From: a bacterium
Lineage (GTDB): Bacteria; Hydrothermota; UBA3073; JACQXS01; JAQTXJ01
NCBI GenBank assembly: GCA_041649255.1
Contig: JBAZNK010000004.1
Span: forward strand, 28,647-92,646
Direction of reading: 5' to 3'
Length of the DNA: 64,000 nt
The notes under the pieces are model-generated. The model had not been told where the DNA came from, searched no databases, and saw only the letters and a list, made by a program, of their open reading frames with translations. Positions within the stretch are counted from its first letter, which is position 1. Each line of letters begins with the position of its first letter. Shown one piece after another: positions 8,279 to 46,394 of this stretch. The translations under genes were made by a program, and so were the position numbers.

Positions 8279-10186
8279 TTAAACTGTTGCAGCGCTTAAA
8301 AACGACTGCATAGATAAATATTGGCTCTGGTATTGAGTCATCATAACTTGCATTTGTGCAAGTTGTTTTGTATATGCCTCTACTCTCTTATCTATTCTTG
8401 ATTGCATTGACGTAATTCTAATATCAAGGTAGTTACTTTTACTATCCTGACCACTTATACTTTTTCCTACATAACCACCACTCTTAACATAATTATCAAC
8501 ATAATCATACAATTTTGATGCTTTTCCATATCCGGTATCCCCGGTAATTAATTGAAATAATTCTGATACATTGGAAGCTTTATTTGCAAGAGCATTTTCA
8601 AATTTATTAGTATCCGAAATCGAGTAATTCCCATTTGAATCGGCGGTTATACCTATTTGAGGAAGTTGTTCATAACCGGTATTAGCCACGCCGACAACTT
8701 TTTCTGACATATATCTCCTCAAATTTGAATACAACATTCTATAAATAGAGTTGTCGGAAAGCGGACCTTTGTCATATTCTCCTTCAGTTAATTTACGAGT
8801 CTTTGTTACTTCATCCAGATAATTAACCACATTATTATATGCACTTAGAAATGCTTGAACTTCTGCTTTTACTGATTCGGTATCGGAACCAACCGTAATA
8901 GTTACCGTTGGTGAAGTCTGAACCTTTATTAAATTCAATGTTAGTCCCGTAACTGCATCCGTAACCGTATTTGATTGCCGTTCCATAGATTCCGTATTAA
9001 TAATAAATTTAGAATTAAGTTCATCTTCTGCGTACACATAACCGCCTTCTCCATCTATCGCATCTTTTTTGGTTATCCTATTAAGTCCGGTAGTATTCGG
9101 GGAACCATCCCCAACAAGATTTCCTGTCACATCCTGGAGAGTAACGGTATAATTATTACCTGTTTCTTTACTCATAATTGTAAGTCTTGCTGTATCAGAG
9201 GTCGGATGAACGACAGTCGCAGTAACTCCTGAATCTGCATATCCGGCGCCACCTGCTGTATCTGTCTTTTGTGTTGTCCTGCCAAGTCCGGTAGTATTAT
9301 GTGAACTACTCCCAACAAGGTTCCCTGTTACATCTTCAAGAGTAACGGTATAATCATTACCTGTTTCTTTACTCATAACTGTAATTCTTGATGTCCCGGA
9401 AGTAGGATGCGTCACAGTCGCAGTAACCCTTGTGTCTGCAGCATTTATAGCCGCTGCCATATTGTCCATAATTGTATCGTTTGTATCGCTTGCAGAAACG
9501 TTTACCGCAATATCACTACTTGCAACTCCTTCTACAAGCACTTTAAACTTATATTCCCCGACATCTCCAGGGTTTTCTCCATATGTTTCATTCGCATCTA
9601 AATCTAAAGCCTCCCATATATCCGTTTCTGTACTTGTAAACCTGTCTGATGCCTGAATTGAATTCTGAGCTGCATTTATAGCAGTTGCCATATTTGTCAG
9701 AATTGTTTCATTTGTATCGCTCGCTGCAACGGTTACTGCAATATTGCCACTTGCAACACCTTCTTTAAGCACGTTAAATTTATATGTCCCGGCACCTAAA
9801 CTTAAATTTCCCCATATATCTGTTGCCGTATTTGTGAATTTATCCGATACCTGAATTGAATTTTTGGCTAACTGGGATATTGAAGTGTTATAATTCCCGG
9901 CCACTGCGGTACTCCCGGCAGATGCAGTAACAACATCAGTATCCGAAGAATTTGCTGATTTGCTATTAAAAGAATTAGCTCCTTCAGTAGTATTTTTTAT
10001 AGCATATGCCTGACTTTTTAATACATTTAATTTAGAAAGCAAGCTTGATAAAACTGAATTTGTAGATTGAATTACTGATTTTTGCGCCTTCAGTAAAGTA
10101 AGAGGTTGCTCAAGCTGTGTTCTGTAAGTTTGAATCATACTATCCAGAGCACTTGAGACAGAACCAGTCGACGATGTGCTTGCCAT
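8279..10186 (-). CDS. fliD: Flagellar filament capping protein FliD (hook-associated protein 2)
   Basis: 635 aa; FliD N-terminal and C-terminal coiled-coil domains around an internally duplicated Thr/Ser/Asn-rich central region. Confidence 0.85.
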   Translation of the reverse strand: MASTSSTGSVSSALDSMIQTYRTQLEQPLTLLKAQKSVIQSTNSVLSSLLSKLNVLKSQAYAIKNTTEGANSFNSKSANSSDTDVVTASAGSTAVAGNYNTSISQLAKNSIQVSDKFTNTATDIWGNLSLGAGTYKFNVLKEGVASGNIAVTVAASDTNETILTNMATAINAAQNSIQASDRFTSTETDIWEALDLDANETYGENPGDVGEYKFKVLVEGVASSDIAVNVSASDTNDTIMDNMAAAINAADTRVTATVTHPTSGTSRITVMSKETGNDYTVTLEDVTGNLVGSSSHNTTGLGRTTQKTDTAGGAGYADSGVTATVVHPTSDTARLTIMSKETGNNYTVTLQDVTGNLVGDGSPNTTGLNRITKKDAIDGEGGYVYAEDELNSKFIINTESMERQSNTVTDAVTGLTLNLIKVQTSPTVTITVGSDTESVKAEVQAFLSAYNNVVNYLDEVTKTRKLTEGEYDKGPLSDNSIYRMLYSNLRRYMSEKVVGVANTGYEQLPQIGITADSNGNYSISDTNKFENALANKASNVSELFQLITGDTGYGKASKLYDYVDNYVKSGGYVGKSISGQDSKSNYLDIRITSMQSRIDKRVEAYTKQLAQMQVMMTQYQSQYLSMQSFLSAATV

Positions 10187-10747: not shown

Positions 10748-11620
10748 TTATTTACCAAGCAATCCGAGTACGAATGAAGGCGCTGTATTCGCCTGTGCAA
10801 GTCCGGCTATTGCAGATTGCTGCAATATTGTATACTTCGTTACAGCCAACTGTTCCTCAGCCATGTCAGCGTTCATTATTCTTGAATAAGTTGCCCAAAC
10901 ATCTGATTCATGCTGAGCAATTCTTCCTTCCTTCACTAATAGACGCTCTTCATAAGTTCCGATGATATTAACAGCGGACTTATCTACTTTTGCAACAGCG
11001 GTTATAAGTGACGCAAGTAATGAACTTGCTGCCGTAATAGTAGAAACGCTCATCGTAGTAATAGAGGCAACTCCCGTTAACTGTTTGAAAGTTAGTCCAC
11101 TTGCTAAATTGTGAACCGTGAATGAGAGTTTGCTTGTCGCTGAATCGCTCGTTGTACCAACCCATGTTGACCTGTTGGTAGAATAGCTACCTTTCAACAG
11201 ATGCAAGCCTCTATACTGAGTCTGTTCTACAGTCTGGTTTATTTCATTTGCAAGAGATTTGAGTTCAGCCAGGACATTTGCTCTGTCAGTTGTTGACAGC
11301 AAGTCAGATGCTGCCCCTTCTGCAAGGACTGACATCTGAGTAAGCATATCCTTAATCGCTACTGCACCTGTTTCTGCAGTAATAAAAAGATTTTGGGTGT
11401 CTTGCACGTTTGTAAGTGCTTTGTGCCACCTCAATGCTGTTCCCTCTAACTCTTTTGCAATAGAAAATTCTGCCGGACCTTCGCCTGCTGAGTTTAACCT
11501 TTTGCCTGTGGCAATTCTGAGTTGGTGAGTACCTAACTCACGGTTAACTGCATTCAAGGCGTTTGATGCATTCATCGCACCCATATTGGTGCGGATTCTC
11601 GCTAAGTCTCCGAATGGCAT
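10748..11620 (-). CDS. fliC: Flagellin (short, 290 aa; N- and C-terminal D0/D1 helices, small variable region)
   Basis: N-terminus (LRIATGKRLNSAGEGPAEFSIAKEL) and C-terminus (IMNADMAEEQLAVTKYTILQQSAIAGLAQAN) match conserved flagellin domains; GGAGG RBS at 11635-11640. Confidence 0.85.
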   Translation of the reverse strand: MPFGDLARIRTNMGAMNASNALNAVNRELGTHQLRIATGKRLNSAGEGPAEFSIAKELEGTALRWHKALTNVQDTQNLFITAETGAVAIKDMLTQMSVLAEGAASDLLSTTDRANVLAELKSLANEINQTVEQTQYRGLHLLKGSYSTNRSTWVGTTSDSATSKLSFTVHNLASGLTFKQLTGVASITTMSVSTITAASSLLASLITAVAKVDKSAVNIIGTYEERLLVKEGRIAQHESDVWATYSRIMNADMAEEQLAVTKYTILQQSAIAGLAQANTAPSFVLGLLGK

Positions 11621-18484: not shown

Positions 18485-20368
18485 TTATTTCTCGGGCAAG
18501 GGTTTTACAGCAACTACCCTGAGGAAGTGGTCCAGACTTTTCCCCTCTTTCAGAGCCACATCAGTATGGTAATCTCGTGGTATTTCTTCAACAATATTCT
18601 CAAACCCACTTTCTTTAAGAAAACGGGATAACCTCTCAAAATTATACCCTGCTAAATGACAATCCGCTCTGCTACGTTGCCCGCCAAAAATCATCGTCAT
18701 ATTATGGTCTGTTGGGGCATTCATATAATCTTCAATACATTTATCCCCATTTGGACATTCAATAATCAGCTTCCCCCCGGGTTGAAGCACCCTGAACCAT
18801 TCTTTCAACATTTGTTTAGCTTCCGGTATTAAAACATGTTCTATCATATGATATGATTCTACCAGTTCCGCGCTATTACCCTGGAATCCTAAGCTACATG
18901 CATCCATTATTACATCTGCAAACGAATTCTTGTAAAGGTCAATATTAACGTATCCTTTTTTATATACTTTACCACAGCCAATATGTAACCTTAGCTTGTT
19001 ATCACAAACCTGTACTAACGGCGCATAATCATTTAATTCTTCTTTCATCACCCTTAATAAATTTCGTTTCAGGGTATTAAAATCAAACTTTTCACATACC
19101 AACTTTCTTGCATTTTTACTCATTTTTTCCACTAACCGTGGATTATTGGCCAAAAAATTCATTTTTATTGCCAGGTCATTTAGATTAACAATTTCCTCTG
19201 GGAAAGCAATATTATCTTCCCTCACTACTTTATTTGCAACCTCTACCAATAATCCATTATGTTTATTTTTAACAAACTCATTCATAGGAGGAGCATTTGT
19301 AGTGATTGCCGGCAAACCACAAGCTAAGGCTTCTATCAAACTCAAGCCCAATCCATCTAATTTGGACGGGTAAACATAAATTAATCCTTTATGGTAGAGT
19401 CCAGGTAGAGGAATTGTTCCCACACAATAAGTAATTCTTTCATTCTTTTGGACAATCCCAACAATTTCTAACGGTAGTTTTTCCAATCCAATCTGGGAAT
19501 GAATTAAAAGAGAGAAATGAGGATTATATTTTGATATCGCATCAAAAGCCAGTATAACCGCAGGAGTCATCTTACGATAATTTATTCCCACCCATCCCGC
19601 ATTATGGAAAAAAGTATATTGAGCTTTTTCTTTTTTAGGCATAAAAAGCTCGGTATCTGTTCCCCAACCAATATAATGAGCATTGCAAAAATCTTTAACA
19701 AGGTCAAAAGTTCTTTTCGTAGAACACAATACCATATCATACAGTTTCATATAAGGCTTCCAATCTTCCTTATAATAATCAAGATAAGTTATGATTTTTA
19801 CTCCTTTTTGTTTACAAAAAATAATTAGATTCCAATCATACTCTTCATTAAATATAATCATACCTATATTGTTATCGTCAATCCATTTTGCAATTATATT
19901 GTGTGGGATAAGATACTGATTAAAAGTTGTAAGGTTCGAAACTTCCCATTCTCCCTTTGTTTTTAAAGAAGGATTCTCAGGCGTTCCTCCATTCCTTGCA
20001 AAAACAAAAGTATTGTATTCTTCGGACAGCGCATCTCTTATTGTTTTTGTGACATACGCCTGACCTCTTTCAAACCACAAACTTATAAATCCAATATTAA
20101 GTTTATTAGAACATTTTTTTCCCTTTCTTGCTTGGAGTTTTGCTTCGCCAGAAACATTAGTGCAAGTTATCCTGCTCCGCCGTGCTTGCTTACAAAGTCT
20201 ATATATAGAAGAATAACGTTCTTTTACTTCAGGATGTGCTTCTGTTATTGCATCTAACCTAAGCATTGCTTCTTCTGTTTTCCCGCACTTAATTAATGCC
20301 CGGATACGAACTATTTTATCATCAAAATTCATATTCCTCAATTGCCACTCTAATCCCGAGTTTGCCAC
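18485..20368 (-). CDS. Bifunctional protein: N-terminal TPR-like helical module + GT-B glycosyltransferase + C-terminal class I SAM-dependent methyltransferase
   Basis: 627 aa; GT-B motif (GLGLSLIEALACGLPAITT); C-terminal MTase motifs (LHIGCGKVYKKGYVNIDL motif I; LQPGGKLIIECPN). Confidence 0.65.
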   Translation of the reverse strand: MANSGLEWQLRNMNFDDKIVRIRALIKCGKTEEAMLRLDAITEAHPEVKERYSSIYRLCKQARRSRITCTNVSGEAKLQARKGKKCSNKLNIGFISLWFERGQAYVTKTIRDALSEEYNTFVFARNGGTPENPSLKTKGEWEVSNLTTFNQYLIPHNIIAKWIDDNNIGMIIFNEEYDWNLIIFCKQKGVKIITYLDYYKEDWKPYMKLYDMVLCSTKRTFDLVKDFCNAHYIGWGTDTELFMPKKEKAQYTFFHNAGWVGINYRKMTPAVILAFDAISKYNPHFSLLIHSQIGLEKLPLEIVGIVQKNERITYCVGTIPLPGLYHKGLIYVYPSKLDGLGLSLIEALACGLPAITTNAPPMNEFVKNKHNGLLVEVANKVVREDNIAFPEEIVNLNDLAIKMNFLANNPRLVEKMSKNARKLVCEKFDFNTLKRNLLRVMKEELNDYAPLVQVCDNKLRLHIGCGKVYKKGYVNIDLYKNSFADVIMDACSLGFQGNSAELVESYHMIEHVLIPEAKQMLKEWFRVLQPGGKLIIECPNGDKCIEDYMNAPTDHNMTMIFGGQRSRADCHLAGYNFERLSRFLKESGFENIVEEIPRDYHTDVALKEGKSLDHFLRVVAVKPLPEK

Positions 20369-22922: not shown

Positions 22923-25900
22923 TTAGTTATCATTTTTTAAAGTTTTATTTTCTTTAATAATCTTTACTTCTCTATTCAATCTTTCCGATTCCTGTGCAAA
23001 TCTAATAGATTTATCTTTTTCCCCTATTACTCTATAGCAAGTGCTTAAAATTTTATATGCAATCACCTTTTTAAATGCCTCTGTAAGCCTTCCTTCCGAT
23101 ATTAACTTTTCAAGTATCTTAATCGGCTTATTAAAGTTCTTTTGCTGCATAAAAACCATAGCAAGTTGGAAATAATAATACGCCTCTTCTTCTTGAGGTA
23201 GAATAATTACTTCCGGATAAAGTGTGCCTATTCTTTCAATCCCATTTTTAAAAGAGTTTTCTGCCTCTTGATACTTTTCAAGTTTTAAATAATATTCTCC
23301 AAGAAAATAGTACGGCAATGGAGAATTTGGAATAAGCTTGCTCGCAAAAATTACATTTTCAATAGCCTTTTTGAACCCTACTTCTCCTGCACTAACAGCG
23401 CTTTCTATAAGATATTTCAATGCATCATTTTCTTTGTTTATTTTTTCCACTTTCATTTCTTTTTCTTCAATAAACTTTTTTATCCAATCTTTTCCTTCAT
23501 ACCAGCTAATAACCCCATCAATCCCTTTTGCATAATAATAATTTAAAATAAGGGCGTAGCAAGTCTCTAAAAGCGGATCCCTGCTGAACTTGTAACTTTC
23601 TAATTCTTTTTCTGATAACTGCTCCAGTTTGGATACAAGATTTTCGGTATATTTTACTAATTCTTCCCTGTTATAAAAATCACATAAACATCTTCTTTTC
23701 GCTTCTTCCAGACTCCACATATCGGTATGCGGACATTTATAAGACAAAATGCCAAAACTCTCCCCTACTTTTACCTGTCTTTGAATATAACTTTTCAACT
23801 CCTGTTTATGATAATGATAAACGATAGCATCGGCATTATAAACTATTCTGTATTTATTTAGGGTTAATCTTAAACCTAATTCCGAATCCTGCCATCCATA
23901 TTTTAGGCTCTCATCAAACAGACCCGCTTCTTCAAAAGCGCTTCTTCTTAATGATATATTCGGGGCATAAAAATATCTAAATTCAACGTTGTCAGGAGAT
24001 TCAATACTCTCATAAGCAAACTGGATATCCCTGTTTTCTATATAGTTTATAAAATGCGATTTTTCTATTTCAGAAGGCCTTTGAATATACCCTAATACCA
24101 CTGTATTCTCATCCCCTTGTTGATGAGTATTTAAATGCTGCTTTATTAAATCTTTTTTTGCAATTACATCCTGACACGAAAGCAAAATGAATTTTCCCTT
24201 AGCTTCCTGTATCCCCTTATTTGTAGCAGCAGATTGACCTTTATGGGATTGTACATACTGCTTAAATTCACATGGGGCTTTTAATCCTTTAATGGCATCA
24301 ATAGTCCCATCCGTAGAACCATCGTCAACTACGATAATTTCCAAATCATCGGCATTAATACCATCCTGGTTGGCAAACGAATCAATACATTTAAGTAAAA
24401 TTTCTTTGTTATTATAAGAAGGAATAACTACCGATAATAGTTTTTCCTCGGGATACGTAAACTTAACTTTAATTTTATCCATTAAATCGGGTTTTATATG
24501 CCATACGGCAGTATCTTTAGCTTCTATAATCTTATATCCTTTGTTTATTATGCCCAATATAATTTCTTGCAAATTCTTACATTCCTTTGGTATAATTTCC
24601 TTTTTAATAATCATACAAGGAACATTTATGTTCTGAACTACAGTTTTTTCATTTCTGTATTTCTTATAATTTTCCCATACATCATTTTCAAATTCATATA
24701 TAAAATTATACTTAAAGGGCAAACTACTAGGAATAACTATTCCAGCGTCTTTCTTCCTATTTAGGTGACTCATTAAATGTTTATCCCATCGCAATGAGAC
24801 AACAACCCCACTATCCAGTATAGCAATATACTTACCCGAAGAATTTTGAATTATGTAATTTGTAATGTTTTCAAGTTCTTGCTCGTTTTCATATTTAATA
24901 TAAAACTTAAAATTTCGCTCCAATTCTCTGGCAATTTTATCACTTTTTGTCGCAATTAGTATGTCTGATAATTTCTCATCCGTATTAATTACCAAATTTT
25001 CTATAGAAGTTTTCGATATTTCCGTATCCTCCGTTACAATAAAAATTATAGTAAGTTCATTTAACAAATGAGACAACAAAGAAGAATCATAAGAAACTTT
25101 AAACCTTTCCGGGTATTTTTCTTTCGGCTCGGGTAATGTATTCCCAAGGTGAATTAACCTTTTTTCTACCATTTCGACGCTATAATTATCTTTAATAAGA
25201 GCTTTCCCATTTCGAGATAGTCTTTCCCACAATTCTTTATCATTATATACTTTAATTACCTCATTAGCAAAACTCTCAGGCGTATCTGCAATTAATCCGT
25301 GTTTGCCATTTTCTATTCCAATTCCTTCCGCTCCAATTGATGTGGTAACCACCGGAATGCCATTTGCAAGCGCTTCGGTCACTTTTCCTTTCATCCCCGC
25401 CCCATAAGTCAAAGGCGCAACCGAAATGCAACAGGAGTCAAGATATACATTAGTGTCGGGTACATACCCCGTTACGATAATGTCTTCAGACTCAAAAGCT
25501 CTAACTTCCGGAGGAGGAGCATTGCCAACTATAAAAAACTTTATATCCGGTAATTTTTTCTTAATTAAAGGAAATATCTCTTTACAAAAATATAACACCG
25601 CGTCTACATTAGGAGTATGTAAAAAACCTCCTACAAACAAAATATCTCCCCTGTTTTCCCTGCCAATAAAGTCTTCCGTGATTTTATGCGTATTGGGCAA
25701 AATTCTTATATCCAAATTGGGAGATTCCTTTAAAAGCGCTTCTCTATCCGTTTCGCAAACGGTTGTGACTACATCCATTTTTTCATAAGTTGCCAACTCT
25801 TTAATTTTATTATATGTAACTTTTCTAAAAAGAGATGGAATTCCTAAAATTTCTGCTTCTCGGAGTTCTCTCATAAAATGCACATCGTGACTATCCAGCA

Positions 25901-27050
25901 CCGTAACACTTTGTGGAGAAAATTTCCTTATAAAATCTATCCACCTGTCTGCAATATTATAAAATTCCAGAGAAACCAACTTAAATTTATTAAAGGTAAG
26001 CAATGCTTCAATTCCTTCGGGAAAAAGAGGATCATAAATTCCACTAATATGCCGCTTTAAATCACAATGAAAAACTGCTACATCCAATTCTTCCAATTTA
26101 TCTACATATTTTTCATACCCGAGTAAATCTTCCACTATAAACACAACATCATAATATTTCTTTAATATATTTATTTTTTGATACAGTCTCAATCCACCAG
26201 ATGAAGCGTCATACCAGGGAGGATATTCGGCAATTATTAATATTTGTTCTTTTTCTGACGGAACTTTATAAAAAGCGCTCTTATAATTACTTAAAACTTT
26301 TTCCCATTTATTAATAAACTTTTCCCTGTTAACTTCCTGGTGTTTTTTCATCCCGGATTTCACGTCCGTTCCTGCTGTTCCCCCTTCTATATGAGTAACC
26401 AGGCTTTTAGGTTGATACATTACCCTAAGTCCCGCTTCTCTACTTCTAAAACACAAATCAACATCTTCAAAATAGCAGGGACAAAACAATTCATCAAACT
26501 CACCGGTTCTATCTAAAGTACTTCGTTTAATATACATACAAGCGCCTGAAGAATAATCAATCTCTCTCTGATGATTATATTTTGGCTTATCGGGATTATC
26601 TCCCCTGCCGATATTTCGTGTTGCCCCATATCTAAAAATATTTCCTCCCCCTGCTTCATTTATAACACCGGTAGGATAAATAAACTTTGGGGCGACGATA
26701 CCAATATCTTCGGAACTATAAGCGCATTCAATTAATCCTTCAAGCCATCCGTTATGAACTAATGTATCATTATTTAATAACAATATGTCATTCTTTGCAT
26801 AAGTCCTCATAACCTGATTCATAGATAATACAAAACCTACATTCTCAGGGCTATTGATAACATCAACTTTATTTTCTAAACTTTCCAAATATTCTTTAGT
26901 CCCATCCGTACTCGCCTGGTCAAATACGCATATTCTATAATAAGGAGTTTTGGTATTCTTAAAAATACTTTCAATGCAATTCTTTAATAAATCAGCCCTA
27001 TTCCAGGTTGGAATAGTGATTATAACCGGTCTGTTTTTATCTGGTTTCAT
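22923..27050 (-). CDS. Giant multidomain glycosyltransferase: GT2 (GT-A) + GT1/GT4 (GT-B) + second GT2 + C-terminal TPR repeats
   Basis: 1375 aa. N-terminal GT-A (PVIITIPTWNRADLL...DQASTDGT...EDVDLCFR). Central GT-B (LFVGGFLHTPNVDAV...GMKGKVTEALANGIPVVTT). Third domain GT-A (LSVVIPSYNNKEIL...VVDDGSTDGT). C-terminal TPR. Confidence 0.7.
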   Translation of the reverse strand: MKPDKNRPVIITIPTWNRADLLKNCIESIFKNTKTPYYRICVFDQASTDGTKEYLESLENKVDVINSPENVGFVLSMNQVMRTYAKNDILLLNNDTLVHNGWLEGLIECAYSSEDIGIVAPKFIYPTGVINEAGGGNIFRYGATRNIGRGDNPDKPKYNHQREIDYSSGACMYIKRSTLDRTGEFDELFCPCYFEDVDLCFRSREAGLRVMYQPKSLVTHIEGGTAGTDVKSGMKKHQEVNREKFINKWEKVLSNYKSAFYKVPSEKEQILIIAEYPPWYDASSGGLRLYQKINILKKYYDVVFIVEDLLGYEKYVDKLEELDVAVFHCDLKRHISGIYDPLFPEGIEALLTFNKFKLVSLEFYNIADRWIDFIRKFSPQSVTVLDSHDVHFMRELREAEILGIPSLFRKVTYNKIKELATYEKMDVVTTVCETDREALLKESPNLDIRILPNTHKITEDFIGRENRGDILFVGGFLHTPNVDAVLYFCKEIFPLIKKKLPDIKFFIVGNAPPPEVRAFESEDIIVTGYVPDTNVYLDSCCISVAPLTYGAGMKGKVTEALANGIPVVTTSIGAEGIGIENGKHGLIADTPESFANEVIKVYNDKELWERLSRNGKALIKDNYSVEMVEKRLIHLGNTLPEPKEKYPERFKVSYDSSLLSHLLNELTIIFIVTEDTEISKTSIENLVINTDEKLSDILIATKSDKIARELERNFKFYIKYENEQELENITNYIIQNSSGKYIAILDSGVVVSLRWDKHLMSHLNRKKDAGIVIPSSLPFKYNFIYEFENDVWENYKKYRNEKTVVQNINVPCMIIKKEIIPKECKNLQEIILGIINKGYKIIEAKDTAVWHIKPDLMDKIKVKFTYPEEKLLSVVIPSYNNKEILLKCIDSFANQDGINADDLEIIVVDDGSTDGTIDAIKGLKAPCEFKQYVQSHKGQSAATNKGIQEAKGKFILLSCQDVIAKKDLIKQHLNTHQQGDENTVVLGYIQRPSEIEKSHFINYIENRDIQFAYESIESPDNVEFRYFYAPNISLRRSAFEEAGLFDESLKYGWQDSELGLRLTLNKYRIVYNADAIVYHYHKQELKSYIQRQVKVGESFGILSYKCPHTDMWSLEEAKRRCLCDFYNREELVKYTENLVSKLEQLSEKELESYKFSRDPLLETCYALILNYYYAKGIDGVISWYEGKDWIKKFIEEKEMKVEKINKENDALKYLIESAVSAGEVGFKKAIENVIFASKLIPNSPLPYYFLGEYYLKLEKYQEAENSFKNGIERIGTLYPEVIILPQEEEAYYYFQLAMVFMQQKNFNKPIKILEKLISEGRLTEAFKKVIAYKILSTCYRVIGEKDKSIRFAQESERLNREVKIIKENKTLKNDN

Positions 27051-27061
27051 ATAATTCTGCC

Positions 27062-27092
27062 CTTTTTATTAAGCCACAGAATTCACAGAAGG
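27062..27092. repeat. Left arm of an imperfect inverted repeat (CACAGAA units) flanking the GxxExxY gene
   Basis: AGCCACAGAATTCACAGAAGGACACAGAAAA here; its reverse complement TTCTGTGATTTCTGTGTCATTCTGTGGCT lies at 27611-27640. Confidence 0.55.
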
Positions 27093-27143
27093 ACACAGAA
27101 AATTCCCTCGTTTATTTCTGTGAATTTCTATCTTCCGCATCTC

Positions 27144-27527
27144 TCAATACACCATCCTTTTTACTTCACACTTTTTCTCTCCAAAATTTAAAAGAAGTCC
27201 TACTTTTACGTTTGTAGTCTTAAGGTAATTTGATAGTTGAGATTCATTTTTGGAATTGTACTCTTTGTCTACTTTGAGTTCTACCAATACTTTTTCCTCG
27301 ACATAAATGTCACAAGCAAAATCTCCAACAGGTTCTCCTTTATAATGAACACTTATAGAGAATTCACTTTTGGCTTCTATGCCTCTTAATCTAAGTTCCA
27401 CAAGTAATGCATTTTTATATACCTTTTCTAAAAAGCCATATCCCAAGTTTTTGTAAACCTCAAAAGCAGCCCCAATTATCTTCTCTGTTAACTCTTTGTA
27501 TAAAAATTCCTCTGATTTCTGCGTCAT
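27144..27527 (-). CDS. GxxExxY family protein (PD-(D/E)XK-like; family typically found in rRNA intervening sequences)
   Basis: 127 aa; family signature LTEKIIGAAFEVYKNLGYGFLEKVYKNAL...; flanked by inverted repeats. Confidence 0.8.
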   Translation of the reverse strand: MTQKSEEFLYKELTEKIIGAAFEVYKNLGYGFLEKVYKNALLVELRLRGIEAKSEFSISVHYKGEPVGDFACDIYVEEKVLVELKVDKEYNSKNESQLSNYLKTTNVKVGLLLNFGEKKCEVKRMVY

Positions 27528-27610
27528 TCTTTAACTATAAGTTTTATTGGTTTTTTATTTGTTTAACTTTATTCATTATTATATTCTCTATTAACTTTTT
27601 GTATAAGACA

Positions 27611-27640
27611 TTTCTGTGATTTCTGTGTCATTCTGTGGCT
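27611..27640. repeat. Right arm of the inverted repeat flanking the GxxExxY gene; additional CTGTG units follow up to 27720
   Basis: See left arm; extra TCTGTGACTA, ATCTGTGTGCTA and TTTCTGTTTTTG units plus the hairpin CCTGCCTGACGGCAGGCAGG at 27681-27700. Confidence 0.55.
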
Positions 27641-27758
27641 ATAATTTTTATCTGTGACTATCCTTCTACTCCCTGCCTGACGGCAGGCAGGTGTGCAAAT
27701 CTGTGTGCTAATTTTTCTGTTTTTGTTTTTCTTTTCCATTTTCTCTTTGGTCCACTCC

Positions 27759-28805
27759 CTATAATTTTATACACTTCTCAAGAACTTTTTCCGGCAAAAT
27801 AATTGACATACAATCCTTTTCGCATTTACTTTTATAGCACCCCAAACAATCCAATTCAGGTTCAATAATCTCTCCAAGCCCATATAATTCAAACTCATTT
27901 CTGTTGAAAATATTATTCAGAAGTATTATTTTCTTTTCAAATCCTATCGCTATATGTAAAGCCATAGTGACCTGTGTAACCACAACTTCGCACACATTTA
28001 CGACCCAAAGAAAATCCTTTAAACTGAAAGTCCCCCAGTATTCTGCTCCGCTTTTTGTTTTTATCCTTTTGTTTTTTTCGTCTTCCTGCGGTCCTCCCAA
28101 AAGAAGCGGAATAAAACCGGCGCTTTTTAATTTTTTAGCTAATGTTACCCAGTTTTCTTCGCTCCAGTTACGAGTTTCCCATCTCCCCCCGCATCCCGTA
28201 TTTAATCCTACTATGCGACCTTTTAATTTTGGGAGTTCCGGGGACTTACCTTTAAGTTCAAGAATATATTTTTCGCCTGAGAAATTAAATCCGCAAACTT
28301 CAAATATTTCCTCAACATAATGTTTTTTATTAGCTTTTTCTATATCATCCCATAATCCCGTTAAAAACTTATGTTCGGCATCTTTATCAATAGAACTGCA
28401 TTTGCCGTCTTTAAGAATAAAACCCTTTTTTATATCCGCAGAAATAAGCCTTGCAAGGGAACAAGTTTCCTTGTCTTTATCAAGATTGTAAAGTATGTCA
28501 AACTTATCTCCTAAAAGAGATACGACGTTTGAAAGCTCAAACTTCATAGGATAATCTACGATAGAAGGCAAAAGTTCCGGGAATATGCTTAACCATGTAA
28601 TCTCGCTATCGGGATATATCTCTTTGAGTCTTCTTAAAATTGGAGTTGTTCTTATAACGTCTCCTGCTGCGCCAAATTTTATTATTAGAATTCTTTTTGA
28701 CACCTCTTTATAATATTCACAATTGTCACAATGAACTCCCTTTTCTTTATGGAATTTACAAGGAATATCCCCTTTGTAAAACCTGCAATTAGTTTTAATT
28801 TTCAT
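27759..28805 (-). CDS. GT9 family glycosyltransferase (heptosyltransferase-like) with N-terminal Cys4 zinc-ribbon-like motif
   Basis: 348 aa; GT9 motif (ILIIKFGAAGDVIRTTPILRRL); N-terminal C-x7-C-x9-C-x2-C; overlaps the start of the upstream radical-SAM gene by 11 nt (translational coupling). Confidence 0.6.
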   Translation of the reverse strand: MKIKTNCRFYKGDIPCKFHKEKGVHCDNCEYYKEVSKRILIIKFGAAGDVIRTTPILRRLKEIYPDSEITWLSIFPELLPSIVDYPMKFELSNVVSLLGDKFDILYNLDKDKETCSLARLISADIKKGFILKDGKCSSIDKDAEHKFLTGLWDDIEKANKKHYVEEIFEVCGFNFSGEKYILELKGKSPELPKLKGRIVGLNTGCGGRWETRNWSEENWVTLAKKLKSAGFIPLLLGGPQEDEKNKRIKTKSGAEYWGTFSLKDFLWVVNVCEVVVTQVTMALHIAIGFEKKIILLNNIFNRNEFELYGLGEIIEPELDCLGCYKSKCEKDCMSIILPEKVLEKCIKL

Positions 28806-31800
28806 TGCCCCTTCCTTTTAGAAATGCTTCTCCTATTTGTGGCATAATGGTGCATAAAAGCCAGCAATGGCATTTCCCGCTGTTCATAAAATCCCGAATC
28901 TTAGTTGCTTTGGACGATTCCCATAATTTATCAAAAGGAGTATCTTTAACATTCCCAACTAACATCTGTTTATTCATCGGACAGAAAAAAAGGTCTCCTT
29001 GAGGATTAAACATAGCAAAATGCACTCCTGCCATACACTTCTTAAAAACTCTGGTAGGATGTAATTGATATTCAACTAAATTCGACCAGAAATATAATTG
29101 CGCAAGTAACCCTATATCGCTTGTAATTGATGTCGTTCTTTTTGCATCAATCATTTTTTTAAGTATTATTTCGATAATGCCTTGAACTTCCAATAACTTT
29201 TCCTTGCTCCATTTCGGGTCCGGCGGTAATACAAATTGAGCCGAAAATATACAATTAAGCCTATTTACAAATTCATAAACAGGCAATAGTTCCGTATAAT
29301 TGTCAGGAGTAACTGTAAAATTAATATTGTAATGAATGTCTTCAAACTCTTTCTGCACTTGAGTTATTGTTCGGACTAAATTATTAAATGCATCCTTTCT
29401 GCCCCTGATTTCATTATGCTTTTCAAATAAGCCGTCAAGAGAAGACCCCAGCCAGATAGATTTTGGCTCATACTTCCTTTTTACCTCCATAAGTTTTTTT
29501 ATCGTTAAATTCGCATCCATACTATTTGTCAAAATTCCAATACTCGCTTCCGGCAACTGTTCTGTTAAGCAACCGCATATTTCTACAAAATCTTTTCTCA
29601 AAAAAGGTTCTCCACCGGAAAGGACTATAGATTTAACATTTTTAAGATATTTGGAATCTCCGATAAACTTCTGAATTTCTTCAAGTGTTAATTGTTTTTT
29701 CTCTAACTCCGGGAATTTGCTGTATTTATCCCACAAATCACAAAAAGTGCATTTACAATTACACCTGTAAGTTAATTCCATATGTAGTTCTTCAGGCCCC
29801 TTCCCTAAATTTATTGCATTATCTATTTTTGGAATTCCTTTTTGAATAGTGTGGTTAATGCTCTCTAAAAGATACTTAAATGGATATCCCTTAATATTAT
29901 GCTCTCTGTACAAGTCCTCTATTTCATAATACAGATTTATTAGAGAAGGGTCTATCTCTTGCGCTTTACGCAGATATGCAATTGCTTCATCTATCTTGCC
30001 TTGCATTTTGCATAAGTATCCCATATTAACGTATGCATCAATATAATCCGGTTTAATTGAAATGGATTTTTTGAAACAACTTTCCCCGTCCTGAAGCTTG
30101 CCAACAGAAACCATTGACACCCCTGTAATATCCCAGATTTCATAATCATCCGGCACGCAAGATAACAATTTTACAAATAGTAAACAGGCTTCTTGTAATT
30201 GTTGGTTAGAAGCCCATTTTTTCCCGAGTTCCAAAACCCATTTTTTTAAATCCGGGTCAATGCTTAATGCTTTTTGAAGCAACTCTTTAGGAAAATCTAA
30301 CTTCCCGGTATTAAAATATAATTTACATAGAATAGAATAAACTTTTGTTGACTCAGGATGCGCTGATAAAACACTTTCCAATTTTAAAATCGCATTCTTG
30401 TAATCTCCTGAATTTATAAAGTTTTCTGCTTCATTTATTTCTTTATCAACTCCCCTTACAGACGGAACTTTTTCGTTAGCTTTTGTATCTTTCCCCGTTC
30501 CCCATTCTTTAATTTCCTTTAAACATTCTTCGTATAAATCCTGTAATCCGATTTTTTGATAGCAGAACGCAAGGTTTTGAATAATAGAGATATTGCGGGA
30601 TTCTTTTTCTATGGAGTTAATAAAATATGGAATTGCTTTTTCAGGTTCTCCTGTATTAAAATAATAATTACCTATGAGATTATTTCTGTTCAGTAATCTT
30701 GGAGCAGGGTAAACACTTGGAACTTTCAAATCCCACGCAAGTTGGCAGAACTCTTCAAATCTTCTTAAACGCACTAAATAAGTATTAGAGCCATCTTTTG
30801 ATTCCCAATACTCTCCTCCTTTACTAAAATCAATGTCAAATTCTTCCTGATGGTCATAAGCATAAGTCCCGGGAGCAAAGCTGCAAAATGCAGGGCAGGG
30901 ATTGACAGTCCCAATATAATCTTTATTTCTTCTTAAAAACTTAAGCGTCTCTCTGAAATCTTCTTCTGTTTCCCCAGGCAAACCAAACATAAAATTAACG
31001 GCACAACTAAGGCCGGCTTTACAACCATCTCTTACTATTTTCTCAGGGTTAATATCTTTTGCCAACAATTTTCCTGCCTTTAACATTAAAGGAACTGAAG
31101 CAGTTTCCATTCCGTATCCTAATGCTACACACCCTGATTGTTTTAATTTAAGTAAAAGTTCATAAGTCATATCCTTTCTCATAATTGCCTGACCGCTCCA
31201 CTGGATTTTCAGCCCATCTTTTACTATGAAATCAGCAAGTTTTTCTAACTCCTTAACACTTCCATTGACCAAACTATCCTGAAAATCAAAGAAACTTCCT
31301 TTTGGATGTTTTTTCAATTGATACAACATTTCCTTATACATATTTTCTGCCGTTCTGAATCGAAATCTTTTCCAGAAAGGACGTTCATTGCAATACACAC
31401 ATTTATTACAGCATCCCCTGCTTGAGATAATTGGAATTTTAAATGGTTCTTTATAATCATTGAAATCGTAATCCGAAAAATCCGGCATTGGCAAAGAATT
31501 AACGTCTTTAATTAACTCTCTATCCCCGCAATCAACCACTTCGCCATTTTTACATATAAGCGTCCCTGCACAAAAATCTACTTTCGGATTTTTAACAATT
31601 TCTTCTAAAGTAACTTCTCCTTCCCCCTGGACAATAAAGTCTACGTTTTCATCTTTAATAATTGCTTTTCCTGCTAAGTCCCTGCTTACATGGGGACCAC
31701 CAAATACAATAATTATTTTGCTGTTTTTTTTCTTAATTTGTTTTGCCAGGTAAAGACTAATATATAAAGAAGAAAAATATATTGAAAATCCAACAACTTT

Positions 31801-33768
31801 TGCTCCACTGCCTAATATTATATCTACATAGTCATTTAAATAATTCTTATGATATTCTATAAACTCATCTACCACGGATGGATTATTCCAGAATGCAAGT
31901 GATTTTTCTAACTCCCAGACATCAGTGTATTTACCTCTTCTCAATTTATAGAGTTCTATATTCAAATCTAAGGAAAGAACTTCATACCCCTGATGTCTCA
32001 CATAAGCAGTCAAACTGGCTAATGCCAGAGGCGGAGTGCTTATTCCCCATGCCGGAGCTTGAACAAGCACAACATCTGCATTCGTAATTTTATTTTTAAT
32101 GTTTGCGTCCGATAAAGACGGAAAATGTTTTTTCATAATATTTTTTACCTCTATTTTCTGGTTATTATCTTTAATTTTACCGCTTTTTTCAAGTTTAAGG
32201 TATTTATCTATAATTTTATTTTTTTTGTTAAGTTCCGCATACAAGGCAGAAAGTTTATCAAATATTTCAGTATTAAACGTTTCTTTAACTAAAGACCTTT
32301 CATAATATTTAGTCGCTTCTTGATATTTCTTTTCATAAAGATAATAATCGCCTATGAGTTTATTCTCGTTAGGTAATTGTTTGAAACCCAATACTATACC
32401 TAATGACTCTAAATGATTAGTAAATTTTTGAAATCTATTTAAACGAATTACATAATTATTTTTTCCGTCTTTACTTTTCCAGTAAACAGCATTATCGTTT
32501 ACTTCTATATTAAATTCTTCCGGGTGAGAATATGCATAACAGCCGGTTGTAAACCCACAAAATCCGGCGCTTGGATTAACTGAGCAATGAGGTCGTAGAT
32601 AGTCAGCATTTCTTGTGAAGAAATCCAAATCGGCTTGAAAATCTTCTTCCGTATCTCCCGGGAAACCGAACATCCAATTCAATCCTATACCTAATTGCGC
32701 TTTATAGCAATCTTTGATAAACTTATCAAAATCGGCATTTTTACACAATAGTTTCCCCATTTTAAGTAATTGTCCTTTTGAAGAATGTTCCATTCCAAAA
32801 CAAAGATGAAAACAGCCAGAATTATGAATTTTCTGCAATAATTCAAATGTCATTTCCGGACGAACGGTCGCTTGCCCCATCCATTCAATACCAAGATTGC
32901 TTTCTATCGCAAGGTCACAAAATTTTTCAAGGGCTTTAACATTACCATTTACCAAAGAATCAGTAAATTCAATTTTTTTTATGTTATATTTAGAAACCTG
33001 GTATTTTACTTCTTCAAAAATTTTCTCCCCTGTTCTGCTTCTAAATTTATACCAAAACACTTTTTCATCGCAATAAATACAATTATTAGGACACCCTCTT
33101 GAAGTTGTAGCCGGTAACATTACAGGCTCTTTATATAATTCAAAAGGAAAATCAGAAAAATCGGCATAAGGCAAAGAATTAAGGTCTGCGATTAATGGTC
33201 TGTCTCCACCGTAATAAATTTTTCCATTTCTGGAAAATAACACGCCTTTTATTGGGTCAAATTCTTCTCCTTTTTCAATAGCTTTGACCAATTCATATAA
33301 AGTTTCTTCCCCTTCCCCGTGAACTACGAAATCTACTTCATTTCTTAAAACAAATTCTTCTCCTTTTATGCCTCTTGCCGCATGGGGACCACCAAAAACG
33401 ATAATCCTGCTCGGGTCTTTCTTTTTAATTTCGGACGCCAATACCAAACTCATTTGTTCCGTAGACCATAGTATTGTAAAACCGATTATTTTAGAGCCGG
33501 AATTTAAAATCTCATCTACGTATCTATCTATTAATTTCTTATGTGCCTTTACAAAATTGCTTACCGCTTGAATATCGCCCCAGAATCCTTCGTTTAATGT
33601 CCACGCATTTGCATATTTAGTATCCTTGAATTCATTATACAATTCAATATTAATGTCCCTCTTGTAAACTTCATAACCGTAAGATTTTAAATAAGCAGAT
33701 AAACAAGCTATAGCAAAAGGAGGGCTTTGTCTTCCCCATGCAGGTGTCTGGATTAATGCTATTTTCAT
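28795..33768 (-). CDS. Giant tri-radical-SAM protein: two tandem B12-binding (class B) radical-SAM domains, TPR linkers, and a C-terminal SPASM/twitch-type radical-SAM domain
   Basis: 1657 aa. Domain 1 (KIALIQTPAWG...TSRGCPNNCIYCDE: CxxxCxxC). Domain 2 (VVLVQAPAWGISTPP...SSRGCCNKCVYCNE). TPR region ~aa 1000-1290. Domain 3 (MELTYRCNCKCTFCD plus C-terminal Cys-rich CMAGVHFAMFNPQGDLFFCP...GKCHCWLLC). Confidence 0.8.
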   Translation of the reverse strand: MKIALIQTPAWGRQSPPFAIACLSAYLKSYGYEVYKRDINIELYNEFKDTKYANAWTLNEGFWGDIQAVSNFVKAHKKLIDRYVDEILNSGSKIIGFTILWSTEQMSLVLASEIKKKDPSRIIVFGGPHAARGIKGEEFVLRNEVDFVVHGEGEETLYELVKAIEKGEEFDPIKGVLFSRNGKIYYGGDRPLIADLNSLPYADFSDFPFELYKEPVMLPATTSRGCPNNCIYCDEKVFWYKFRSRTGEKIFEEVKYQVSKYNIKKIEFTDSLVNGNVKALEKFCDLAIESNLGIEWMGQATVRPEMTFELLQKIHNSGCFHLCFGMEHSSKGQLLKMGKLLCKNADFDKFIKDCYKAQLGIGLNWMFGFPGDTEEDFQADLDFFTRNADYLRPHCSVNPSAGFCGFTTGCYAYSHPEEFNIEVNDNAVYWKSKDGKNNYVIRLNRFQKFTNHLESLGIVLGFKQLPNENKLIGDYYLYEKKYQEATKYYERSLVKETFNTEIFDKLSALYAELNKKNKIIDKYLKLEKSGKIKDNNQKIEVKNIMKKHFPSLSDANIKNKITNADVVLVQAPAWGISTPPLALASLTAYVRHQGYEVLSLDLNIELYKLRRGKYTDVWELEKSLAFWNNPSVVDEFIEYHKNYLNDYVDIILGSGAKVVGFSIYFSSLYISLYLAKQIKKKNSKIIIVFGGPHVSRDLAGKAIIKDENVDFIVQGEGEVTLEEIVKNPKVDFCAGTLICKNGEVVDCGDRELIKDVNSLPMPDFSDYDFNDYKEPFKIPIISSRGCCNKCVYCNERPFWKRFRFRTAENMYKEMLYQLKKHPKGSFFDFQDSLVNGSVKELEKLADFIVKDGLKIQWSGQAIMRKDMTYELLLKLKQSGCVALGYGMETASVPLMLKAGKLLAKDINPEKIVRDGCKAGLSCAVNFMFGLPGETEEDFRETLKFLRRNKDYIGTVNPCPAFCSFAPGTYAYDHQEEFDIDFSKGGEYWESKDGSNTYLVRLRRFEEFCQLAWDLKVPSVYPAPRLLNRNNLIGNYYFNTGEPEKAIPYFINSIEKESRNISIIQNLAFCYQKIGLQDLYEECLKEIKEWGTGKDTKANEKVPSVRGVDKEINEAENFINSGDYKNAILKLESVLSAHPESTKVYSILCKLYFNTGKLDFPKELLQKALSIDPDLKKWVLELGKKWASNQQLQEACLLFVKLLSCVPDDYEIWDITGVSMVSVGKLQDGESCFKKSISIKPDYIDAYVNMGYLCKMQGKIDEAIAYLRKAQEIDPSLINLYYEIEDLYREHNIKGYPFKYLLESINHTIQKGIPKIDNAINLGKGPEELHMELTYRCNCKCTFCDLWDKYSKFPELEKKQLTLEEIQKFIGDSKYLKNVKSIVLSGGEPFLRKDFVEICGCLTEQLPEASIGILTNSMDANLTIKKLMEVKRKYEPKSIWLGSSLDGLFEKHNEIRGRKDAFNNLVRTITQVQKEFEDIHYNINFTVTPDNYTELLPVYEFVNRLNCIFSAQFVLPPDPKWSKEKLLEVQGIIEIILKKMIDAKRTTSITSDIGLLAQLYFWSNLVEYQLHPTRVFKKCMAGVHFAMFNPQGDLFFCPMNKQMLVGNVKDTPFDKLWESSKATKIRDFMNSGKCHCWLLCTIMPQIGEAFLKGRGNEN

Positions 33769-39474: not shown

Positions 39475-40683
39475 TTAACTTACATATGCTTCTTTATTCC
39501 ACTCCCGCATAGTTTCTATTATACTGCTTGCGCGATGGACATAAGTATGTTCCTGTAAAACTCTTTGTCTTGCTTTTTTTGCAATCTTTTTTCTTTCGGT
39601 TGAATGCTGAAGATAAAAGTTAACCAGTTCTTTTAATTCTTCCTTATCCTTGAAAGTTATTACCTCTTCTTTTGGAATAAACAAATCAATCAAAGTCTTA
39701 CGTTCATCCGTAATAAGAAACCCGCCCGCAGCAGGAACATCAAATACCCTTTGATTACATCCCTCCGGCATTTGAAAACTTGTAATATTTAAATTTATTT
39801 CACTCCCGTTATAAACCAAAGGCAATTGAGTGTAATAGTTTACGGCAGGCAACAATGTTACGTTCTTGAAAAGTTTATGCCAACCCGTATCTCCATATAT
39901 TCTTAATCCACAAGATAAAATATTCTCCAAGACTTCTTGTCTTTTGTTAAACGTAGCTTTTAATGCAATATAAGACTCAAGTTCAGTTAATTTTCCATTA
40001 TCAATCGGCAATTTTAATTCCAGAGTTTCAGATATTTTTTTCAATGCTTTGCCTGAGAAAATTCCACTTTTATTATGTAATAATTTTAAGGTTTCATCAG
40101 ATAGTTTTTCCCATTCATTAATATTAGAGACTTTCTTTTTCCACTTATCAACTGATTCTATCATAGAATCTCCAACAAAGCTTATATCCGTTACATATTT
40201 ACCGGGTATATTTTCCATTAGTTTAAATATTTCCGGGTCAGTTCCAAGAGGTAAATACTTAACTTTTTTAAATCCTGATTCTTGAAGTTCAGAAACATAC
40301 AAAGGGTCCCACACAAATACGTTGGCATAAGGAGAAACGTTTTCTTTGTCATAACCTTCAAGAATATATCTAGGGGAATCTACATACCATATTGCATACG
40401 GAATCTTTAACTCGGTTAACAATCCCGTAATTTTCCCTTCACAGTCAAACCCCTCGTGGTTTACGGTGAATATGAAATCCGGTTGAAATTCACATAACGT
40501 AACCAGAAGTTCTTTTAGGAAGGTATCTTTCTTGTTAACAGTTATTTTACGAACTTCGCAGCCAAGTCTTTCAAATGCAGTAGCGCATTCTTTGACAATA
40601 TAATAATCCCATTCAAATATAACTATCCTTGTCTTATTTCTTTTGAATTTTGCATAAGATGTTGCGGATTTAATCTTTTGCAT
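39475..40683 (-). CDS. CgeB-like (DUF3880/Glyco_trans_1_2) glycosyltransferase-like protein
   Basis: 402 aa; C-terminal motif KIAKKARQRVLQEHTYVHR typical of CgeB-family proteins. Confidence 0.5.
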   Translation of the reverse strand: MQKIKSATSYAKFKRNKTRIVIFEWDYYIVKECATAFERLGCEVRKITVNKKDTFLKELLVTLCEFQPDFIFTVNHEGFDCEGKITGLLTELKIPYAIWYVDSPRYILEGYDKENVSPYANVFVWDPLYVSELQESGFKKVKYLPLGTDPEIFKLMENIPGKYVTDISFVGDSMIESVDKWKKKVSNINEWEKLSDETLKLLHNKSGIFSGKALKKISETLELKLPIDNGKLTELESYIALKATFNKRQEVLENILSCGLRIYGDTGWHKLFKNVTLLPAVNYYTQLPLVYNGSEINLNITSFQMPEGCNQRVFDVPAAGGFLITDERKTLIDLFIPKEEVITFKDKEELKELVNFYLQHSTERKKIAKKARQRVLQEHTYVHRASSIIETMREWNKEAYVS

Positions 40684-40693
40684 CGCTCATATT

Positions 40694-46287: not shown

Positions 46288-46394
46288 AAAGAAATGCAAA
46301 TTTTAGATTCTAGACTTTGCCTGCCTGCCGGTAGGCAGGGATTTGGGATAAGTACGATCTCGGCATCCACCTTAGGTGGAGATAGGAGGGTTAA

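Follow-up and report, generated by a model that had tools for sequence, protein, structure and literature searches.

Between two glycosyltransferase genes of a Hydrothermota bacterium lies a gene for a small nuclease of the GxxExxY family, which is bounded on both sides by inverted repeats built from CACAGAA units. The DNA analysed here (positions 28,647 to 92,646 of contig JBAZNK010000004.1, assembly GCA_041649255.1) comprises 64,000 nt, hereafter 'the window', and is numbered from its first letter; the segment in question spans 27051-27758. We conclude with high confidence that it is a discrete unit with inverted repeats as its bounds, one of a widespread family that is essentially undescribed. 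On balance, we also consider it probable, though by no means certain, that the segment represents one copy of a selfish 'foldback cassette' of approximately 0.6 kb. In the searchable literature, GxxExxY is rarely mentioned and never as the subject, and no paper there has two of the six heptamers sought; PDDEXK_3 is listed there as 'unknown' with 'multiple transfers' (PMC3424549).

The nuclease gene (27144-27527, minus strand) encodes 127 amino acids, which in profile searches match TIGR04256 'GxxExxY' (135.6 bits, cut-off 35) and PF13366 PDDEXK_3 (134.5 bits, cut-off 22) over the full length. The GxxExxY motif corresponds to residues G31-F-L-E34-K-V-Y37, and D73, E83 and K85 form the PD-(D/E)XK catalytic set, the residues of which are conserved. 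The protein is not an HUH/Y1 (IS200-like) transposase. Its AlphaFold model is of moderate quality (predicted local distance difference test, pLDDT, 77), a sequence search of the PDB and the anti-phage defence models of PADLOC gave no match, and PHROGs returned only a weak 'endonuclease' match.

An earlier note on this DNA had described the gene as flanked by CACAGAA-built inverted repeats, and both sequences it quoted are indeed present as arms of 31 nt, each consisting of AGCC and three CACAGAA units. Its placement of the inverted copy, which lies at 27610-27640, was right, whereas the left arm, AGCCACAGAATTCACAGAAGGACACAGAAAA, is found at 27072-27102 and not at 27062-27092, i.e. it had been set 10 nt too low. 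Read as mRNA (all genes surrounding the cassette are on the minus strand, and the nuclease gene is co-oriented with this host operon), the upstream arm L1 (27610-27640, minus strand) is AGCCACAGAAUGACACAGAAAUCACAGAAAU, and the downstream arm R (27072-27102, minus strand) is UUUUCUGUGUCCUUCUGUGAAUUCUGUGGCU, i.e. three TTCTGTG units with a terminal GGCT. Seven of the 13 exact CACAGAA occurrences in the window fall within 27075-27637, with 5.8 +/- 2.5 expected for the whole window, and the two arms are its only arrays of at least two C[AG]CNGA units, as compared with 0.44 such arrays per shuffled window. L1 and R pair as 11 + 7 + 8 bp, with two small internal loops that arise because the spacers are 3 and 2 nt in one arm and 2 and 3 nt in the other. 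The resulting RNA duplex is predicted at -38.1 kcal/mol, whereas 500 shuffles gave a mean of -11.0 and a best value of -21.8. Moreover, the L1:R stem is present in both the minimum free energy (MFE) and the centroid structure of the 708-nt minus-strand RNA (-139.3 kcal/mol, z = -3.27).

Relatives reveal the unit as a whole. The exact protein occurs on a metagenomic contig of run SRR8542065 with the gene order of the window, and two genes for a 97%-identical protein (P0001) lie 13.9 kb from each other on a single 400-kb contig of the metagenome-assembled genome (MAG) GCA_028716385.1. One of these copies (locus L002) occupies the orthologous site between the GT9-like glycosyltransferase gene and the gene with three glycosyltransferase domains (tri-GT). 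The neighbours of the second (L003) are a GT4 gene and another, different gene. Over 646 nt, the copies have 92.7% identity; the DNA on either side is unrelated. All three copies, i.e. those of the window, L002 and L003, share the outer degenerate units, the intact arm, the stub and the decayed arm at the ATG (described below), followed by the open reading frame (ORF), the inner unit, the downstream arm and the right edge. The genes that flank the L003 copy are adjacent and co-directional in the window, where the junction of a 352-amino-acid GT4 gene and the next gene (40683-40688, minus strand) is an empty site without any arms: it reads GTCTGAAATATG-AGCG-ATGCAAAAG, and in L003 655 nt replace the 4 nt AGCG. 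Since a 655-nt unit thus stands against 4 nt between the same two adjacent genes, arms and gene have been gained or lost together. The L003 insert extends 25 nt and 9 nt past the shared cassette, with a 5-nt ATGCA repeat at the junctions that may or may not be a target-site duplication. The ORFs of the two MAG copies differ solely in their first 93 nt, which indicates recent duplication or gene conversion. The suggestion in the earlier note of a mobile or structured cassette between the tri-GT and GT9 genes is therefore borne out by the presence or absence of the whole unit, by the two copies in the relative and by the same design in most homologues. The note would have given way to an ordinary gene if the repeats were unique and the relatives' genes lacked them, and the opposite was found. 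As to the further copies that it envisaged, tblastn detected no other GxxExxY gene in the window, and the MAG has two such genes with their arms.

How widespread this design is can be seen in 80 metagenomic loci of homologues with 46-66% identity, of which 65 had at least 150 nt on both sides. A flanking inverted repeat better than the best of 100 shuffles was found in 51 of these 65, and 39 in addition had at least two recognisable cores per arm. The common arm build starts with (T)TAGC at the outer end, followed by three CAC[A/G]GA[A/T] units with a spacing of 2-4 nt, i.e. a period of 9-11 nt. Median distances are 26 nt from the end of the left arm to the conserved domain that follows and 6 nt from the stop codon to the start of the right arm, and with a heuristic choice of starts the likely start codon falls within the left arm or at most 40 nt from it in 34 of 46 loci. 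The unit type follows protein distance, being CACAGAA or CACGGAA in the closest relatives of the window protein and mostly CACGGAT or CACAGAT in more distant ones; arms and gene thus diverge together. Cassettes share the orientation of the gene upstream in 42 of 46 loci, and that of the genes on both sides in 34 of these 46; crude ORF calling puts the gaps at about 90 nt.

Both protein and arms are conserved. Between window and MAG, the ratio of non-synonymous to synonymous differences (pN/pS) of the ORF is approximately 0.05 at a pS of 0.26-0.30; the protein is therefore functional, and its ORF is under strong purifying selection. In a hand count on the alignment of window and L002, none of the 42 core positions of both arms differs, where our arithmetic for neutral change at a pS of 0.26 gives about 11. 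Cores are also identical in L002 and L003, and the few arm differences lie in spacers or at the arms' inner ends. Across the homologue loci, left and right arms mismatch at 3.9% of core and 19% of spacer positions. At the variable core position 4, the left unit agrees with its corresponding right unit in 82% of cases, in comparison to 70% within an arm and 44% between loci, and spacer lengths agree between the arms of a cassette. From this pattern of mismatches and unit-by-unit agreement, two properties seem to be maintained, namely the position-by-position complementarity of the arms and the core sequence itself. In 44 of 51 cassettes, at least 15 L:R pairs persist in the MFE structure; as these arms had been selected for complementarity, this shows only that local alternatives do not win.

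The architecture described most closely similar to this one is, on comparison of their parts, the ORF-bearing intervening sequence (IVS) in the 23S rRNA of Coxiella burnetii, a 428-nt element with a 28-bp terminal stem that is cut by RNase III (PMC4990558). Its 5' region carries three tandem GACAGAT heptamers and a GACAGAA directly before the start of an ORF for S23p, a four-helix-bundle protein (PMC4990558). In both cases, the host unit that holds the insert of about 0.4-0.6 kb is transcribed, terminal inverted repeats provide a stem of about 26-28 bp that loops out a sense ORF of about 120 amino acids and without known function, and a heptamer-built 5' arm (GACAGAT/GACAGAA there, CACAGAA here) directly precedes the start codon. 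Unlike the IVSs, which sit in helix 9, 25 or 45 of the rRNA, the cassette resides in a protein-coding operon and is flanked by glycosyltransferase genes, and its ORF encodes a PD-(D/E)XK nuclease and not S23p. Moreover, its units recur every 9-11 nt, whereas the Coxiella heptamers are tandem and were taken as contiguous. The earlier statement that GxxExxY ORFs are classically embedded in 23S rRNA IVSs could not be confirmed: in the literature consulted the IVS ORF is that of S23p (PMC4990558), no ORF-free flank longer than 686 nt occurs in the 80 homologue loci, and Rfam detected no rRNA in the 20 of these loci that were scanned, the only match being one group II intron. Likewise, Rfam at gathering thresholds found nothing in the window, including no rRNA, and a tRNA scan of the window was negative.

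By this analogy, the cassette would be transcribed within the operon, and its arms would pair into an interrupted duplex of about 26 bp with the ORF looped out, a geometry shared with those ORF-bearing IVSs whose heptamer-built stem is cut by RNase III. That the arms serve the operon transcript as a stem for RNase III-type processing, as in rRNA IVSs, is quite possible, and we put it forward tentatively; excision by RNase III has been shown for the Coxiella IVS and would be an extrapolation for the cassette. Cleavage would free the cassette RNA and limit expression of the nuclease, and the cistrons on either side would stay functional. The right edge (27060-27071, minus strand; TAATAAAAAGGG in the mRNA) may contribute to this, as it would provide the downstream gene with stop codons and a ribosome-binding-like stretch: it contains stop codons and a purine-rich, Shine-Dalgarno-like stretch 9 nt ahead of the ATG (27050) of the tri-GT gene. 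Its TAATAAAA(A/G)GGG sequence is kept in all three copies, including L003 at its different site, and homology between the paralogous copies stops just past it. At the DNA level, more speculatively, the arms might be the ends of the element and the conserved CAC[A/G]GA[A/T] cores might be binding sites, most simply of the nuclease itself, an enzyme that would in this way favour the copying of the cassette. That this nuclease recognises the cores and drives copying is conceivable, yet we regard it as rather doubtful.

Several observations weigh against a self-mobile cassette or against one or the other step of this scheme. Pfam scans of 20 ORFs of the window detected no transposase, recombinase or integrase, and we know of no precedent for a 127-amino-acid PD-(D/E)XK protein as the sole transposase. 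A target-site duplication is not established, the possible 5-nt ATGCA at one site being the only candidate. Both MAG copies reside within one hypervariable glycosylation island and show a gene-conversion pattern, and homologous recombination could therefore have moved them. With respect to the RNA, arm mismatches of the transition type are G.U-compatible in 33 cases and of the A.C type in 30, i.e. there is no sense-strand wobble bias, and pairing in the mRNA strand is thus not demonstrably the selected property; the arm patterns would be explained equally well by recognition at the DNA level, by pairing on either strand or by conversion of one arm by the other. In the lineage of the window, the intact arm lies about 100 nt upstream of the real start codon, which makes it impossible for that arm to occlude this codon. 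Finally, conservation of the cores across phyla is greater than a stem alone requires.

Homologous recombination and gene conversion would be all that placed the copies if the nuclease gene were a passenger without mobility of its own and the arms merely structural or regulatory RNA elements, i.e. insulator hairpins of a horizontally exchanged gene in a hypervariable locus. The gene-conversion pattern of the MAG copies would suit this explanation, as would the gene content between the two cassette sites, which differs between window and MAG, the strong co-orientation with operons and the stable predicted stems. Nevertheless, we consider it unlikely. Insertion at the second site is clean to about 25 nt and 9 nt, between conserved adjacent genes and with no other rearrangement, the unit of arms plus gene recurs in unrelated operons (a hyp operon in L125) and in many phyla, and the absence of a sense-strand wobble bias speaks against arms that serve as RNA structures only.

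The arms also occur on their own. A scan of one genome per species (596 Gb) for three CACAGAA units yielded at least 120 loci, as compared with about four that we estimate by chance; the loci listed span Bacteroidota, Planctomycetota, Acidobacteriota, Chloroflexota, Omnitrophota, Elusimicrobia, Spirochaetota and others. Among the matches listed, only two of 120 have a GxxExxY gene within 400 nt, and about half have an inverted partner array at a distance of 4-280 nt and thus are solo hairpins, several of which directly follow a stop codon (e.g. L020 and L033). Within single genomes, solo arm pairs are found at scattered sites: the arms are conserved, the loops diverge and the flanks are unrelated, as in Brachymonas (L010, with two copies, and L062), Victivallales (L006 and L033) and Sediminibacterium (L031 and L074). 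Solo hairpins also co-occur with complete cassettes: one Spirochaetota contig holds one of each (L028 and L124) with the same arm asymmetries, and L048 and L050 are a further such pair. The window contains neither a solo hairpin nor any array beyond the two arms of the cassette.

Such dispersal raises the alternative of a largely domesticated, REP/RAYT-like system, in which the solo hairpins would be the main elements, tolerated by the host or useful to it as mRNA 3' stabilisers or processing sites, with GxxExxY as the enzyme that disperses and maintains them. The dispersed pairs of single genomes, the arm asymmetries common to hairpin and cassette on the Spirochaetota contig and the complete hairpins that flank the gene in L175 are all consistent with it, and a RAYT/REPIN architecture is known in which, as here, a short palindromic repeat brackets a nuclease gene in inverted copies and is found elsewhere in intergenic DNA as dispersed hairpin doublets without a gene (PMC3337134). 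The protein, however, has a PD-(D/E)XK and not an HUH-Y1 fold, the arms are three-unit arrays and not GTAG-headed REPs, and the same core motif is shared across many phyla, unlike the lineage-specific REPs. Furthermore, RAYTs are usually single-copy per REP family, whereas GxxExxY genes are multi-copy and widely transferred, with two identical copies in the MAG. With the window itself free of solo hairpins, we judge this alternative to be quite improbable.

Mixed arrangements suggest a third alternative. Hairpin-GxxExxY-hairpin-ORF148-hairpin in L175 (2405-3480), L-GxxExxY-L-ORF109-R in L207 (2440-3370), L-ORF152-R-GxxExxY-R in L136 (718-1700) and a 200-amino-acid gene between two solo hairpins in L054 (6998-7790) show that other ORFs can sit between the same arms. 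In approximately 200 loci, these few unannotated ORFs (L054, L136, L175, L207) were found within arms and no S23p was encountered, although no direct search with S23p sequences was made. Palindromic arm pairs could thus be sites at which a recombinase encoded elsewhere exchanges ORFs, in the manner of integron gene cassettes, with which the unit shares small ORFs co-oriented with their neighbours and with no demonstrated promoter of their own, imperfect palindromes between them and occasional multi-ORF arrays with non-GxxExxY ORFs (L175, L207, L136). However, a reading of the arm sequences, which was short of a full search with attC models, revealed no attC-type GTTRRRY cores, no integrase was among the 20 window ORFs scanned, and the half-sites are usually split around the ORF and inverted, so that inversion rather than excision would be expected. 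We therefore regard an integron-like origin as very improbable. As to an ordinary gene with flanks alike by chance, only the short length of the units speaks for it, and it is refuted by the array and duplex statistics as well as by conservation in relatives and homologues.

With a selfish foldback cassette as the favoured explanation, two further classes of elements invite comparison. Correia elements of Neisseria are of the miniature inverted-repeat transposable element (MITE) or foldback type and are cut by RNase III when transcribed. With such elements the cassette shares terminal inverted repeats, ORF-less derivatives, insertion between operon genes and a hairpin in the transcript, and like MITEs and the transposons with terminal inverted repeats it has copies at different sites. 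Unlike them, it has no recognised transposase or proven target-site duplication, its only ORF encodes the 127-amino-acid nuclease and its arms are made of tandem subrepeats. Homing endonuclease genes, which are free-standing or located in intron loops, include that of I-Ssp6803I, an enzyme with the PD-(D/E)XK fold. A small nuclease ORF that occupies the loop of a structured element, the fold of which is thereby preserved, is common to the cassette and such genes, whereas for the cassette there is no evidence of a cleavable empty allele, and the empty site of the window has no arms.

The cassette thus presents the architecture of the IVSs outside of rRNA; a clean empty site is known for it, and one genome has two copies. 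Its linkage to a nuclease gene that is under strong purifying selection is tight and widespread, and the core motif of its arms is kept across phyla. ORF-bearing rRNA IVSs have been called 'selfish elements' since the 1990s, with no known mobility mechanism or ORF function (PMC4990558). As a broader possibility, which we regard as speculative and rather less than likely, GxxExxY nucleases may be dedicated mobility or maintenance enzymes of pan-bacterial foldback repeats (AGCC plus three CAC[A/G]GA[A/T]), and ORF-bearing rRNA IVSs may be elements of the same kind that landed in rRNA helices. If so, these repeats would come in two forms, i.e. a cassette with an ORF and a solo hairpin without one, nuclease and repeats would be the functional counterpart of RAYT-REPIN on a different nuclease fold, and the IVSs would for the first time gain a mobility mechanism and their ORFs a function.

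Within the cassette of the window, additional parts accompany the two arms. An inner fourth unit (27114-27126, minus strand; AAUUCACAGAAAU in the mRNA) directly follows the stop codon and offers arm R a possible local partner (11 bp, -17.3 kcal/mol) in place of the long-range stem; it is kept in L002 and L003, and a similar unit after the stop is found in L124. A decayed arm copy, L2 (27506-27547, minus strand; AGUUAAAGA-AUG-ACGCAGAAAUCAGAGGAA), overlaps the true start codon. It is 83% identical to 27610-27651, and its pairing with R (-22.0 kcal/mol) is about that of the best shuffled L1:R control. L2 belongs to a duplication that the earlier note had left unremarked, in which 27578-27651 (about 73 nt) matches 27475-27547 at 83-90% identity and an offset of 103-104 nt. 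This stub of the gene's 5' end (27578-27651, minus strand) consists of a leader of about 12 nt, the intact L1 and about 18 codons that are out of frame; the upstream copy has retained three perfect units (AGCCACAGA-AUG-ACACAGAAAUCACAGAAAU), and all three copies of the cassette have the stub, without a conserved frame. Since a Spirochaetota MAG with a 59%-identical protein shows the same junction (AGCCACAGA-ATG-ACACAGAAA) without a stub, sequence comparison suggests that the stub is secondary in the lineage of the window. Tandem extra left arms are nonetheless common: upstream of the GxxExxY genes in L137 (about 700-1020), L141, L160 and L176, tandem repeats of about 100 nt each contain a left arm, and as these resemble the 103-nt 5' duplication of the window, duplication of the arm region seems to be recurrent.

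Further upstream, an outer degenerate arm-like region, L0 (27651-27725, minus strand), corresponds by homology to AACCACAGAA...CACGCAGATTAG in L002 and L003 and includes the additional TCTGTG units at 27651-27656 and 27700-27705, which, like a GC hairpin, the earlier note had correctly seen. This hairpin (27672-27691; CCTGCCTG-ACGG-CAGGCAGG) is absent from L002 and L003 and has a second copy, CCTGCCTG-NNNN-CAGGCAGG, in a spacer between genes of the flagellar cluster (46320-46339), where chance would produce none; the two loci share the hairpin alone. Because of its absence from the relatives and its second copy, the GC hairpin is a separate small repeat, i.e. a window-specific insertion outside of the cassette as seen in relatives. 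It has no T-run, and there are no terminator-like sites in 26900-27900, which dismisses an intrinsic terminator. A promoter of the cassette's own was also considered and set aside, since promoter-like sites in this region are no commoner than in shuffles; a TATACA-16-TATAAT sequence in the stub (27605->27578) stays a possibility. The small ORF at 27569-27739 (minus strand) is not a gene, as Pfam gave no match and relatives do not keep its frame.

Individual loci add minor observations. Following its GxxExxY stop codon by about 60 nt, L147 has a group II intron (1925-2144; D1-D4, 63 bits), which adjoins the expected position of the downstream arm. L125 contains two PDDEXK_3 genes (99-473 and 2334-2747) in one hyp operon (hypC-fmdE-hypD-PDDEXK_3-hypE), the first with CACAGAA arms and the second without arms. 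In L005, L012, L021 and L032 (Bacteroidales-type), families of tandem CACGAAT, CACGGAT and CGCAAAG units adjoin the CACAGAA arrays in the same intergenic regions. The solo-hairpin loops of the Victivallales MAG (L033, 4225-4265, and L006) hold a GC hairpin of their own followed by a T-run, which is terminator-like. L002 has a different arm type (AGCCACGGAT...CACGGAT) in two direct copies about 150 nt apart (20130-20310), after a gene for 184 amino acids, and several arm families are therefore possible in one genome. Only one relative is found on viral contigs, and phage carriage is thus not a major route.

The arms also have consequences for annotation, as they give rise to numerous small ORFs that are spurious and make GxxExxY genes appear too long at the N-terminus (e.g. 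P0048 and P0054). They can also alter the end of a neighbouring ORF: in L002 the GT9 gene call (8809-9882) enters the outer arm-like region and yields 357 amino acids, ending ...KKTTEERQNTD, in comparison to 348 for the upstream GT9-like neighbour of the window (27759-28805, minus strand). The downstream tri-GT neighbour (22923-27050, minus strand) encodes 1375 amino acids with GT2, GT1 and GT2 domains. At 28795-33768 (minus strand) there is a 1657-amino-acid ORF with three radical-SAM and two B12-binding domains, TPR repeats and a SPASM-like region, which is conserved in the relative MAG. The glycosyltransferase island that harbours the cassette (within 8279-63000) is flanked on one side by FliD (8279-10186) and flagellin (10748-11620) and on the other by fliF, fliG, fliI, fliK, flgE, fliM, fliR and two sigma-54 activators (42264-62908), and for this reason looks like a flagellin-glycosylation island; the island of the relative (L003) additionally holds NeuB, CTP_transf_3, formyltransferase and PIG-L genes.

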